The position numbers were made by a program. From Escherichia coli (lineage in GTDB: Bacteria; Pseudomonadota; Gammaproteobacteria; Enterobacterales; Enterobacteriaceae), in the NCBI RefSeq assembly GCF_041248615.1, contig NZ_CP158426.1: a stretch of 64,000 bases of DNA; one strand, given 5' to 3'. Shown here one piece after another: positions 9,001 through 15,000 of the stretch (position 1 is its first letter; each line of letters starts with the position of its first letter).

Positions 9001-12000
9001 GGGAGAATTCAGGTAATCCCCCTTTCACACTTTGTACATATCACAGCCAAAGGACAGACCAGATTGAAGTGGTAAAACCGATCGTGCACACTACGCAGTC
9101 TCACAACTAACAAGAGGTTATTATCCTGATGGATCAGGTTGTTGTTTTTCAAAAGATGTTTGAGCAAGTGAGAAAAGAGCAAAACTTCTCCTGGTTTTAT
9201 TCAGAATTAAAACATCACCGTATTGCACATTACATTTATTATCTGGCTACGGATAACATCAGAATTATTACTCACGATGACACGGTTTTGTTATTAAGAG
9301 GAACCAGGAACCTGTTAAAAGTTAGTACGACCAAGAACCCTGCTAAAATAAAAGAGGCCGCATTGCTTCATATTTGCGGAAAATCAACATTTCGGGAATA
9401 CTGTTCAACACTGGCAGGCGCGGGCGTTTTCCGGTGGGTTACTGATGTTAATCATAACAAACGCAGTTACTACGCCATTGATAATACGCTTTTATATATT
9501 GAAGATGTAGAAAACAATAAACCATTAATCTAGCTAAAGTTGGAAGCTTAAGAAATGCTTCATAATTCAGTAAGGCATTAGCATAATGGAAATAAAAGTG
9601 CAGAGACTATCCCTATGGATGATATATACTATCTTTTTATTGCCACCCATAAATAATCACCAGGCCAATACTATCAAATTGATATTTGAAATGTGATTAC
9701 TTGACTTTCTATAAGTTATTTTATAACGGTTAACAAATTTATAAAACCAACGGGCGTGCCATACGCCCGTTTCAATACTTAACGCACATGTGTTTTGGTT
9801 TAGTCATCATCCGGTTATATGTATTTTAGCCAGGAATGGGTTAAACCATTCCTATATAACTAAAAAATTGAAACCTTATTCTCATGTCATGCTTATATTC
9901 GTCATTATCGTTATATAAAAAGGCCAACCATAATGTTTAGCAAATTGGCACAAAGTAGTATAAAGGCTATGTTTTAATTACAGGATGTTCAGTCATTTGA
10001 ATGTATAACATTTTAGCTAAACAAATCTAAAACGAAGTGAATAATTTAATGTTTTCACTAAATCTCATTTTGTTTAATATCTATTGAGATTTCTTGCTTT
10101 AAATTTTGTTTTATATAAACAATGGTTTTAATTTTTGATTAATTTGTTTTTTGGGGAGTAATATACACATATGCAAAGTCAAGAAATGAACATCCAAATG
10201 AACTATATTAAGCACCGTGGGATAAGACATAACAAATGAAGTGGATAGTAATTGACACGATAATTCAACCTACATGCGGCATATCTTTTTCAGCCATATG
10301 GGGTGATATGAAAATGATCATCTGGTATCAATCTACTATATTTCTCCCTCCTGGCAGTATATTTAAACCGGTTAAATCTGGTATTATCTTTAAGGATAAA
10401 GAATACCCTATTACTATTTATAATATCGCACCATTCAACAAGGATTTATGGATTTTACTCAAAAGCAGTCAAGAGTGTCCTCCAGGAGAAAGCGAAATAA
10501 CAAATAAATGTTTACATAATAGTTGTATTATAAAAATATGCCCATATGGACTCAAGTAATGGGCTTCATATAAATATGCTCGACATGCTATTAATAATAT
10601 CCACATAAATAAAACAACGGGCGTGTTATACGCCCGTTTCATTATTTAACACATGTAGAGATTACATGTTCTTGATGATCGCATCACCAAACTCGCTACA
10701 TTTCAGCAATTTAGCGCCTTCCATCAGACGTTCGAAGTCATAGGTTACGGTCTTGGCGTTGATTGCGCCTTCCATACCTTTAACAATCAGGTCTGCGGCT
10801 TCAGTCCAGCCCATATGGCGCAGCAGTATATAAAAATTATGTATTCAACTCGCTGATATTTAATCATAAATATTATTTTCTTGTCTTTGTATTAGCCAAA
10901 ATCAACTTTATTCAACCGTTTGATTTCATTGACGTTCGTTTTTATTTTGGGGAAAGATTTTCTCTACCATTTATATCAAAATTACAAGTCTACATTTTAT
11001 TAACATCTCAATACATGTGTGGCCTTGCAAGCCATTGCGAGGCCTTATGTGTCTCAGTTTTGTCCCGCCTTGTATTACGACTTGCATAGCCAATGAAGAT
11101 AAACGTGACGACAAACAAAGCAGCTGTCTTCTTTTCTTTCACACTTTCCCCACTCAGCAGCATGCATACCTTCTACTATAACTGTAGTGAATGTCTATTA
11201 TGAGCGAACTGCGGACATCGTGGAGACAACATGCTGCTGGGTGCGGATATCCCATGGCACGTCATATCGCTCGCCGTATTACTTGTTATTTTTTTGAAAC
11301 GAGAAGTTGATACAATTCCTTCAGGGATAAGGCTAATAACTCATTCTTCCTGATGAGATCTTTATCAGCGTCTATACCCTCTGCGCATGATTCATTTAAA
11401 TAGTTCAGTGTTTCCTGATCATCATCCAAGCATTCATAGCTGCCTGAATAAAATTCATCGCAACTTGCTTTGTTATTTTTGTCAATGTAACCAATGCATT
11501 GAATCACGCCTTTAACAACTTTAGCAGCAGAAAAAACAAAGTAACTGCAGTCATTTATATAGCGTTCAATATCAAAAATCATATAAAAATAGTGCATAGA
11601 GTGTTTTTCAATTTCAAACTCACTTGAAATCATAGCTATTTCACATTCAAGGTCTTTCAGACCATCTAACATTATGGAAAGTTTACATTGTTTTTCTTGC
11701 ACAGTTTCATACTTAAATGACTCTCTCCCCTTTGCCCTGACATTTATTCTTTCTTCAATTGCATAAATATAAGCAGGATATACACGCGACCACACTTGGT
11801 TTATTTTTAGGATTAACCGGCCTCTTTTCAGCCTTTCTTTTGTAGCTATAAATTCTGCATATAGCGCAGCATCCTCTTCGCACCATACATCAACTTTTCG
11901 TTTATAACCCAACTTTAATTCTTTCCCTACGCATTCAGGAAACAAAGGATCAAAGTCCTTTAAGTATTCAAACTCACTTAGATAGAATCCTGTCTCATAA

Positions 12001-15000
12001 CGATTAAATAATTTCCTAAACTCTTTCCCACTTAAGGTTTTCATTGTATCAATCACTCTGTTTTCATAAAAGCAAAGTCAACAAGATAAAACAATAAAAA
12101 CTCTTACACAACCAGCTGATGTTTTTAAAATAGAGGATAATATAAGACAAGCATAACCTCGTTCACTTCAATGCTACTCCTATCGTTCTTTTGCGTCACA
12201 GAGCGCCTGCCGGACAACTGCATCATAGACCAAACGGAACTGCTTCCGTCGATTAATCAGATGGCAGCGCATAAACACGCTCAACAACCCGTTTGACTGC
12301 TTCAATTTTAAGCTCTTCGGAATAACGCTTACCGTGTAAGTCTCCCTGCAAAACGAGCTATCAACTTTTAAGGAGTCTCTGGCCCCCCTGCTTCCGCTCC
12401 TGGCACACAGCAGCCCTAGAGACAGTGGAGTAAAGTCATGGAGGCTCGGTGGGGAGAGGTGCAAATCCTCCCATACAAAAAATACGAAAATCAGTAACGG
12501 CTAGAAATCATTCAATACATGCACTCTCGAAATTGCATCAGCCAACCGCAAAACGTTATTTCAAAGCCTACTAGCTGCCTTACTTTTTTCCTCAATAACG
12601 CGTCGCCAGCCGGAAACAACCTAATCCCTGTTTTGGGCCTCAAAACCGCTAATGATAATCATTTTCATTTTGTATAGGTTGTGCTATAAAACATAGCCGT
12701 TGCTATGTTTGTTCTAATTTTGCTCACTATAGGTACTAAATTATGCACTCGATAAAAAAAGTAACCATGCTCTTGGGGGGCCTCGCACTCACCTGCTCGA
12801 TCGCATTTCAGGCAAGTGCAACTGAAAAATTCAAGGTCATTACAACATTTACCATCATCGCGGATATGGCCAAAAACGTGGCGGGAGATGCTGCAGAAGT
12901 CTCATCCATAACCAAGCCTGGTGCAGAAATTCATGAGTATCAGCCTACCCCTGGCGATATTAAACGTGCGCAGGGGGCACAACTGATTCTCGCCAATGGT
13001 ATGAATCTGGAATTGTGGTTCCAACGCTTTTACCAGCATCTCAATGGGGTTCCAGAAGTAATTGTCTCTTCGGGTGTGACGCCTGTAGGGATCACCGAAG
13101 GACCCTATGAGGGCAAACCTAACCCCCATGCATGGATGTCGCCAGATAATGCTCTGATTTACGTCGATAATATTCGTGATGCGTTGATAAAATACGATCC
13201 GGCAAATGCACAAACCTACCAACGCAATGCCGATACTTATAAAGCCAAGATTACCCAAACCCTTGCCCCCCTGCGTAAGCAGATTACGGAACTCCCTGAG
13301 AATCAGCGATGGATGGTCACCAGTGAAGGGGCTTTTTCTTATCTCGCACGCGATTTGGGGCTAAAAGAGCTTTATCTGTGGCCGATTAATGCCGATCAAC
13401 AAGGAACACCGCAGCAGGTACGTAAGGTTGTTGATATAGTTAAGAAAAATCATATCCCGGCAGTCTTTAGCGAGAGTACGATTTCCGATAAACCAGCGCG
13501 TCAGGTTGCGCGTGAAACCGGCGCACACTACGGCGGTGTGCTCTATGTCGATTCCCTGAGCACAGAAAACGGCCCGGTACCGACGTATATCGACCTTCTT
13601 AAGGTTACTACCAGTACGCTGGTACAGGGAATTAAAGCTGGGAAAAGGGAGAAATAATGATGCAATCTGCAGGCATTGTCGTTAATGATGTTACTGTCAC
13701 CTGGCGTAACGGGCACACAGCACTGCGCGATGCATCCTTCACAGTACCAAGTGGATCTATTGCCGCTCTGGTTGGGGTAAACGGTTCCGGAAAATCGACG
13801 TTGTTTAAAGCGATTATGGGATTTGTGCGTCTGACCAGCGGAAAGATATCTGTTCTGGGTATTCCCACGCGACAGGCGTTACAGAAAAACCTGGTTGCCT
13901 ACGTCCCTCAGTCAGAAGATGTTGACTGGTCATTTCCTGTACTGGTGGAAGATGTGGTGATGATGGGCCGCTATGGGCATATGGGTATGTTGCGTATCGC
14001 CAAAAAGAGGGATCGTCAAATTGTCACCGATGCGCTGGAACGTGTCGATATGGTGAATTTTCGCCATCGACAAATCGGCGAGCTTTCCGGTGGACAAAAG
14101 AAACGCGTCTTTCTGGCGAGAGCGATTGCACAGCAGGGTGATGTGATCCTGCTGGATGAACCTTTTACTGGCGTTGATGTGAAAACCGAAGCCAAAATCA
14201 TCAGCCTGTTGAGGGAGTTACGCGCGGAAGGCAAAACGATGCTTGTCTCAACACACAATCTCGGATCCGTCACGACATTTTGCGATTATACGGTCATGGT
14301 CAAAGGCACCGTCCTGGCAAGCGGGCCGACAGACACCACTTTTACAGCCGAGAACCTAGAGCTGGCTTTTAGCGGCGTACTGCGCCATGTCACACTTAAC
14401 GGCTCGGAAGAAAGCATTATTACTGACGATGAACGCCCTTTTGTGGCTCATCGACCGTCAGCGGTGCAGAGGGAAGAAAGATGAACGTGCTACTGGAACC
14501 CTTCAGCTATGAATATATGCTCAATGCGATGTGGGTCTCGGCGATGGTCGGCGGTCTCTGCGCTTTCCTGTCATGCTATCTGATGCTAAAAGGCTGGTCG
14601 CTGATTGGCGATGCGTTGTCGCACTCTATTGTCCCGGGTGTTGCGGGGGCATATATGCTGGGGCTTCCGTTTTCTCTGGGAGCCTTCTTTTCCGGCGGAC
14701 TGGCTGCGGGCAGCATGCTGTTTCTTAACCAACGCACCCGCTTAAAAGAAGATGCCATCATCGGTCTGATCTTCTCGTCCTTTTTTGGCCTGGGGCTGTT
14801 TATGGTGTCATTGAACCCGACATCTGTGAACATTCAGACCATCGTCCTGGGCAATATTCTGGCAATCGATCCGGCGGATATCCTGCAACTCACTATCATT
14901 GGCATTCTCTCGATCATCGTGCTTTTTTTCAAATGGAAAGATCTTATGGTGACCTTTTTCGACGAGAATCACGCCCGTGCTATTGGATTGCATCCGGGCA

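Follow-up and report, generated by a model that had tools for sequence, protein, structure and literature searches.

Gene 31 of phage 21, a mobile cargo gene at the attachment-site-proximal end of an Escherichia coli prophage

Introduction

Lambdoid phages and prophages carry accessory cargo in a slot that runs from the tail-fibre genes to the attachment site (the b region, or att-proximal region); described occupants include mcrA and pinE in the e14 element of E. coli K-12, and lom and the ea genes in lambda. Here we analyse a gene in the same slot of a lambdoid prophage integrated at icd in E. coli, within a 64,000-nucleotide stretch of contig NZ_CP158426.1 (assembly GCF_041248615.1), hereafter the window. 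The same stretch was placed on the chromosome of E. coli NRZ14408 (NZ_LT599825.1), with window position 1 at record position 3,075,672. The gene lies at 11286..12044 on the minus strand, and its 252-amino acid (aa) product is 100% identical over its full length to the gene 31 protein (CPT_21_31, UMO75446.1) of phage 21, a classical lambdoid phage (record OL657228) that integrates at icd. The gene had been presented in a preliminary description of the window as an orphan gene; it is not anonymous, being gene 31 of phage 21, a known but uncharacterised gene that belongs to a known class of prophage cargo genes. The protein is the same in phage 21, with the same neighbours (sitABCD, gene 32, an icd fragment and attP with int), and across positions 10609-12800 the window is 99.0% identical to the phage. 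Gene 31 is likewise annotated in phage 21 as a hypothetical protein of unknown function; the genome announcement says nothing on gene 31, only that the morons of phage 21 differ from those of lambda (PMC9119081). No study of gene 31 was found in the searchable literature.

Gene 31 is a real, selected gene

The open reading frame (ORF) of 256 aa that had been proposed at 11286-12056 on the minus strand was recovered exactly in the ORF list, with a GTG start, and corresponds to the RefSeq entry WP_000567449.1 (hypothetical protein, 256 aa from the GTG at 12056). The true start is probably the ATG at 12044, which gives the 252-aa protein, because the PHROG 20520 profile begins at residue 5 of the 256-aa form, because the phage 21 annotation has the 252-aa form and all orthologues begin MKTL, and because a GAG/GGAG Shine-Dalgarno sequence lies ~10-14 nt ahead of that ATG on the minus strand. 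PHROG 20520, whose category is "unknown function", matches the protein over profile positions 1-252 (E 1.4e-177).

Gene 31 is carried by 21 sequenced lambdoid phage records and by 759 of 5,426 complete E. coli genomes (~14%), including O25b:H4-ST131 strains and Nissle 1917. The E. coli copies are at least 99% identical and intact in 757 of the 759 carriers, and nearly all are 100% identical; disruption by IS1 was seen in one chromosome among the sampled rows, and one mis-filed "plasmid" record holds a split copy. Orthologues with 63-88% identity were found in other Enterobacteriaceae (Citrobacter, Klebsiella and Mangrovibacter) and in one Aeromonadaceae bin, for a total of ~22 clusters. Among six orthologues from different genera, the pairwise ratio of non-synonymous to synonymous substitution rates (dN/dS) was 0.16-0.41, and orthologues have a G+C content (GC) of 34-38% regardless of the composition of the host. 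Together, these dN/dS values and the AT-richness in every host indicate a coding gene under purifying selection that is foreign to its hosts. Gene 31 is thus a real gene and not a chance reading frame, and signs of decay to a pseudogene, which were looked for, were absent. Carriage on plasmids was considered for a record with a 100% identical copy (NZ_CP082081.1), but that record, the one examined, is a mis-filed chromosome fragment with bluR and ycgX. A 14.8-kb ColV-type fragment (NZ_CP098209.1; iucA, sit) carries a frameshifted gene 31 copy beside sitA.

Within the search space covered, the protein is an orphan without a recognisable motif, as had been described. Pfam and NCBIfam gave no match, and at E values up to 10 no Pfam family (including HTH_17, Phage_AlpA and MerR) was returned for the protein or for 14 N-terminal domains of the family. 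The only match to the whole protein in a sequence search of the PDB was insignificant (E 0.37, a de novo designed protein), and a profile of the N-terminal domain matched no PDB sequence. When 1.84 billion representative proteins were searched exhaustively with an HMMER profile, a single full-length cluster was recovered, which is the family itself, together with its fragments. A Lit-type protease is not indicated: the protein has no HExxH motif (its only two histidines are at positions 148 and 151) and no Pfam match. Homology to a housekeeping phage function was also sought, and none was found; gene 31 shows neither homology to nor operon membership with morphogenesis, replication, lysis or integration genes, and some of its orthologues reside in integrative and conjugative elements (ICEs) and islands without phage genes. 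Gene 31 is not a structural or housekeeping phage gene nor, in the reading favoured below, a virion or lytic-cycle gene.

Position in the prophage and base composition

The prophage–host junction is marked by a displaced 168-bp 3' fragment of icd (10662..10829, minus strand), annotated as a pseudogene by RefSeq and equivalent to icdC in the K-12 arrangement; it coincides with the start of the interval 10828-12056 to which the preliminary description had drawn attention, and it adjoins the host genes iraM, ycgX and bluR. A terminator scan placed a bidirectional terminator after the fragment (10616-10638). The int gene and the complete icd are found at the opposite end of the prophage (61190-63696). 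The stop codon of the ORF is 457 bp inside the icd-fragment junction, in agreement with the claim of a location just within the prophage boundary, and the ORF is outside the morphogenesis block, since sitABCD (12743 onward) separates it from the tail-fibre genes. The gene is thus well described as accessory cargo at the attachment-site-proximal end of the prophage. In phage 21 the tail-fibre genes are followed by two small ORFs, then by sitDCBA (opposite strand), an insertion sequence (IS)-like remnant, gene 31, gene 32 with its 51 codons, the icd fragment, and attP with int.

At 34.1% GC the ORF is AT-rich compared with the window as a whole (48.0%), and the interval 10828-12056 is among the lowest 2.4% of same-size windows by GC; however, the earlier statement that this is where the window is most AT-rich does not hold. 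That minimum falls at 9100-10700 (30.7-32% GC), in the ycgX-iraM host stretch outside the prophage. The analogy that had been drawn with lit of e14 is also wrong in its particulars. In K-12 MG1655 (segment 1194500-1214500) lit is located between icd and intE, at the other end of e14, although the slot equivalent to that of gene 31, between the tail-fibre genes and icdC, is occupied by pinE and by a defence gene, the type IV restriction gene mcrA.

Next to gene 31 in the window is a 51-aa ORF (11008..11163, minus strand) that corresponds to phage 21 gene 32, annotated there as a "putative membrane protein". A single hydrophobic stretch is present in it, and part of the ORF coincides with a GC-rich palindrome (11021-11044) that was terminator-like in the scan. 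The downstream alignment showed that it is not conserved beside gene 31 orthologues and falls outside the conserved unit, and its status as a genuine gene is doubtful. On the other side, and also outside the gene 31 unit, is sitA (12743..13657, plus strand), the first gene of the divergent sitABCD Mn/Fe transporter cargo. In this strain sitD is split by IS1414, an IS256-like element (15335-17515, with the transposase gene at ~15935-17143), so the prophage-borne Sit transporter is probably defective here; in phage 21 the transporter is intact.

Compared with phage 21 the prophage is mosaic, with 99.5% identity in the b region, 95.8% in the segment with J and the side-tail-fibre gene, and 96.9% in the att-int-xis segment, while the other aligned pieces are short (91-98% identical) and the remainder of the fetched phage 21 segment is unaligned. 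Further lysogenic-conversion or exclusion cargo in the window comprises iss (bor-like; ~41442-41735), an ompC-type porin gene by the lysis genes (43526-44608), and sieB (52940-53521) with ral nearby.

Genomic contexts and conserved flanks

Gene 31 is not confined to prophages at the icd site: its orthologues are in ICEs and small islands of the other groups named above. We read twelve independent contexts; besides the phage b region and a CP4-type island, these comprise small islands, a few islets and three ICE contexts in which the gene occupies different intergenic slots. No neighbour is conserved across them, and sitABCD adjoins the gene only in E. coli. A candidate partner gene was rejected: divergent neighbours of ~385 aa at two loci proved to be mutually unrelated, and no remnants of the genes that neighbour orthologues are present in the window. 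The neighbours often include genes of a kind associated with genetic conflict, such as T5orf172, DUF1963 and a WYL regulator at one locus, CTD7, MC3 and LmuB_C at another, and elsewhere Imm50 with a type I restriction-modification system with RhuM, and HNH_2; Lamassu-like and further conflict domains are among them. This neighbourhood is suggestive but anecdotal, because ordinary metabolic genes are also among the neighbours.

The sequence conserved with the gene extends ~112 nt on the 5' side (12045..12156, minus strand; six aligned contexts), beginning abruptly at TTATGCTTGTC, and 85 nt on the 3' side (11201..11285, minus strand), where homology in the downstream alignment ends at 11200. Since the flanks are conserved and homology then stops, what moves is a self-contained unit of one gene, and gene 31 is horizontally mobile in this form between phages, conjugative elements and islands.

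Upstream of the 5' region is a decayed orfA remnant of the IS3 family (IS407-like; 12157..12379, minus strand), which reads ..RYSEELKIEAVKRVVER.. in the window, with stops and frameshifts, and ..KKYGGMELNE at three other loci (L002, L004 and L011). The phage 21 annotation notes weak similarity to IS3 transposases for gene 30. The same remnant, in varied states of decay, also lies ahead of the Citrobacter, Mangrovibacter and Aeromonadaceae orthologues, so the IS insertion is older than the spread of the unit. Beyond the remnant is a degenerate right half-site, CTGTGTGCCAGGAGCGGAAGCAGG (12387..12413, minus strand; motif and nhmmer scans), which has a single copy in the window, is identical in phage 21, and delimits the imported segment on its upstream side. 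At the other edge, the 3' flank ends in the left half of a palindromic site, CACGATGTCCGCAGTTCGCTCA (11201-11222), the full form of which follows the gene in Citrobacter and Klebsiella.

A weak candidate promoter, read by eye on the minus strand in the 5' region, consists of TTGTGT (~12106-12111), a 17-nt spacer and TATCTT (12083-12088). Activation by CII was also considered and rejected as evidence: the CII-binding site that the phage 21 record marks ahead of gene 31, a TTGYN6TTGY match at 12081-12094 (phage 21 26065-26078), is not conserved in orthologues, and the motif occurs in the window at chance frequency (14 matches, against 15.4 +/- 3.5 expected). Neither flank has a significant RNA fold (z -0.57 for the downstream one) or an Rfam match.

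Palindromic sites and a small tyrosine recombinase

The points at which homology breaks coincide with a repeated site: in Klebsiella, in Citrobacter and in a C. sedlakii ICE, copies of CTGTGCCAGRAGCGGAnGTTG in the same orientation stand on both sides of the gene. The full site is an imperfect palindrome of ~72 nt (consensus AACGTCCGCTTnTCGCTCAnAGCGGAC, a variable stretch of ~20 nt, then GTCCGCTnTGTGCCAGAAGCGGAnGTTG) with the core GTCCGCTnTGTGCCAGRAGCGGAnGTTG, and in Enterobacterales such sites separate single small accessory genes in arrays. Full sites were located at L002 (9584-9657 and 10831-10901), L003 (8597, 9857, 10863 and 13817), L009 (8397, 9855, 11023 and 11752) and L114 (959-3340). 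The palindrome follows the gene 31 orthologues in the first three of these loci, whereas the window has half-sites only.

Covariation gives modest support to a hairpin structure of the site. With a 24-pair hairpin model across 27 sites, 83.6% of cells were paired, against 36-44% with one arm slid, and 24 cells carried a change in both arms, compared with 13.1 +/- 2.9 after shuffling; at one position G-C and T-A clearly alternate. RNAalifold alone did not predict the long hairpin. The site is of low copy number in E. coli, with one or two copies in accessory regions of 91 of the 5,426 genomes. An exact-motif scan of 100,044 species returned more than 120 loci, against a calculated expectation of ~70 chance matches, and Enterobacterales account for about 1/3 to 2/5 of the rows listed, judged by their titles, a clear excess. 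The cargo found at the sites includes GNAT acetyltransferases, glyoxalases, an OLD-type TOPRIM protein, HNH proteins, an MCP and many unknowns. No description of the site or of such a system was found in the searchable literature.

A tyrosine recombinase of 200 aa, with little beyond the catalytic domain, is encoded beside sites at L003 (9235-9837), L002 (5385-5987), L021 (8839-9441) and L067 (6113-6715), and also at L100, L117 and L121. It is similar to Xer recombinases and Fim invertases, although its scores fall under the thresholds (58 bits against the NCBIfam Xer/integron-integrase models, where the cut-off is 220), and no match to a named recombinase system was made. At L003, L021, L067, L100, L117 and L121 the codons for the conserved C-terminus (...ISESIEV) are followed by a conserved hairpin (GGGCTGCAACAGCAGCCC) and a half-site, and L002 has a variant of this junction after the recombinase gene. 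The recombinase family is very large (at least 8,000 clusters) and unusually conserved, with 76-98% identity from Klebsiella to Idiomarina (Gammaproteobacteria).

Predicted structure and proposed function

The gene 31 protein is 29.7 kDa with a pI of 5.3, and has no transmembrane segment or signal peptide. An AlphaFold2 model built on a 20-sequence alignment is well packed over the full length of the protein (mean predicted local distance difference test score, pLDDT, 92.5; predicted template modelling score, pTM, 0.84), and predicts a fold of two domains. Residues 1-55 are modelled as a strand, two helices and a β-hairpin (β-α-α-β-β), a predicted winged-helix domain of the excisionase/MerR type, and the best matches to this domain in a structure search were excisionases (the AlpA family, RdfS and Xis). 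The remainder is modelled as a bundle (residues 56-252) of four long helices (56-110, 115-147, 153-189 and 206-251). The orthologue alignment identifies H151, C166, C183, C195 and an LDDD motif (L206-D209) as invariant, all within the bundle.

The reading that we favour, at low confidence (a probability of about 0.4), is that the gene 31 protein is a non-enzymatic binding or regulatory protein composed of a predicted winged helix and a Cys/His-bearing bundle; it is the best supported because it fits the predicted fold and because no enzymatic family was matched in Pfam, NCBIfam or PDB sequences. We infer that a soluble cytoplasmic protein would be expressed in the lysogen from its own weak promoter, and that the winged-helix domain would use its first helix and the wing, both of which are basic from the sequence, to bind DNA or a partner protein. 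Oligomerisation would fall to the helical bundle, which might also sense metal or redox state via its Cys and His residues, and the resulting regulator or sensor may benefit the carrying element or its host, either through lysogenic conversion or when mobile elements are in conflict. Several observations weigh against this proposal. The "recognition" position is taken by an acidic helix (residues 22-31, SEFEYLKDFD), an atypical feature for a domain that recognises DNA; the matches to the C-terminal bundle are confined to generic helical repeats such as those of spectrin, PhoU and the cytosolic domain of CorA, a structure search of BFVD returned nothing, and the conserved Cys residues could be structural. 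In addition, a consensus scan found no sigma-70 match on the minus strand upstream of the gene, and the six-context alignment contains no operator-like conserved dyad upstream.

A broader proposal, which combines the mobility of the gene with the predicted protein and which we regard as tentative, is that gene 31 is cargo of an undescribed cassette-like mobility system and that its product is a new sensor or regulator in conflict. Such a system would operate in Enterobacterales and other Gammaproteobacteria on single accessory genes bounded by the ~72-nt palindromic sites, the 200-aa recombinase would act on these sites, and phage 21 would have captured one unit; the protein would then be a winged-helix and helical-bundle sensor or regulator in conflict between mobile elements. 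The sites and the recombinase may mark a route for single genes between phages, ICEs and islands in Enterobacterales and, if real and undescribed, the site system would help to explain how prophage cargo slots are filled; it is a more novel lead than the gene itself.

The rival account that survives best is that gene 31 is a single-gene system for anti-phage defence or superinfection exclusion, expressed in the lysogen, which would recognise a component of an incoming phage by its winged-helix or helical domain and block or abort infection, with an architecture that would work as in BstA (see below). This is possible but somewhat doubtful. The presence of the restriction gene mcrA in the equivalent slot of e14 is in its favour, as are the orthologues in cargo hot spots next to conflict-type genes, the OLD-like TOPRIM protein among cargo bounded by the same site family, and the fact that phage genomes of limited size keep this AT-rich one-gene unit, which brings its own 5' region. 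However, the only match in PADLOC-DB 2.0 was sub-threshold, with PDC-M13C over 25 residues (5-29; E 0.0034, 15.6 bits), the protein lacks any effector domain of the nuclease, NADase, protease or membrane-segment kind, the accession is not in the DefensePredictor supplementary tables, and ordinary metabolic genes are also among the neighbours, which leaves the association anecdotal.

It is unlikely that gene 31 is a neutral or silenced passenger in E. coli, that is, cassette debris imported with IS fragments and kept only through a recent spread of the phage-21-type b region. AT-rich composition such as that of gene 31 is typical of H-NS-silenced DNA, the gene is bounded by a decayed orfA remnant and mere half-sites, no consensus promoter was found, and the near-complete identity of the E. 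coli copies is uninformative on selection within the species. Nevertheless, purifying selection between genera contradicts this account, and also against it are the integrity of 757 of 759 copies at 99% identity or more (with the IS1 case seen among the sampled rows and the split copy in the mis-filed record), the retention of the gene in packaged phage genomes where space is limited, and the high-confidence, well-packed AlphaFold model.

More improbable still is a role as an excisionase-type recombination directionality factor for the 200-aa recombinase and the palindromic sites. Such a helper would account for the structural matches of the N-terminal domain to the AlpA family, RdfS and Xis, for the sites that bracket the gene, and for the position of the recombinase gene, which lies directly upstream of the Klebsiella orthologue and 4 kb upstream of the Citrobacter one; yet gene 31 was found in 0 of 120 motif-bearing loci (the recombinase in at least 4-6), the recombinase is missing from most gene 31 contexts, its family comprises at least 8,000 clusters against ~22 for gene 31, and phage 21 encodes its own Xis. 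A metal-responsive regulator or PhoU-like modulator of the divergent sitABCD is the least credible alternative: gene 31 is divergent from sitA in all phage-21-type prophages and has invariant Cys and His residues, but the orthologues of other genera are never beside sit, the 690-bp spacer to sitA is IS debris, and sitABCD is controlled by Fur and MntR.

Gene 31 is an uncharacterised gene that is widespread in E. coli and that adjoins the virulence-associated sitABCD in a classical model phage. Given the genetic tractability of phage 21 and the confident AlphaFold model, a function could be assigned to a family without one.

Comparison with known systems

Judged by sequence searches, the architecture of the gene 31 protein has no characterised relatives. 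Excisionases of the AlpA type (HTH_17) and MerR proteins have winged helices without the 195-residue helical bundle that is fused to this domain in the gene 31 protein; none of these families has a sequence-profile match to it, and its recognition-position helix differs in being acidic. BstA, an abortive-infection protein (PMC8585504), is similar as a single protein encoded by a prophage, with a putative DNA-binding domain at the N-terminus and a helical region at the C-terminus. The resemblance is in a possible mode of action and not in sequence, as BstA has KilA-N and no homology was detected.

The bounding sites invite comparison with integron cassettes and attC sites, including arrays of attC sites that lack an integrase (CALIN arrays; PMC4889954). 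The layout resembles that of attC arrays: gene 31 orthologues have ~72-nt imperfect palindromes at their borders, in which AAC...GTT is outermost, the sites split arrays of small genes, and the cargo is typical of cassettes (GNAT, glyoxalase and unknowns). Unlike in integrons, no IntI was found, the associated recombinase being the 200-aa protein that resembles Xer recombinases and Fim invertases; the gene 31 unit has its own conserved 5' region, and the window keeps half-sites only. The circular-cassette rule of integrons, by which the 5' boundary of a cassette is complementary to the left end of its own site, was tried on 18 cassettes and found no support (mean 1.67 of 7 matches, against 2.04 in mismatched controls; permutation p = 0.93).

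With the cargo of lambdoid b regions, gene 31 shares the slot between the tail fibres and the attachment site, a non-structural nature, and a slot whose content differs between related phages. It is unrelated in sequence and domains to McrA, to Lit and to all lambda b-region proteins, and it differs from that cargo in being found outside phages as well.

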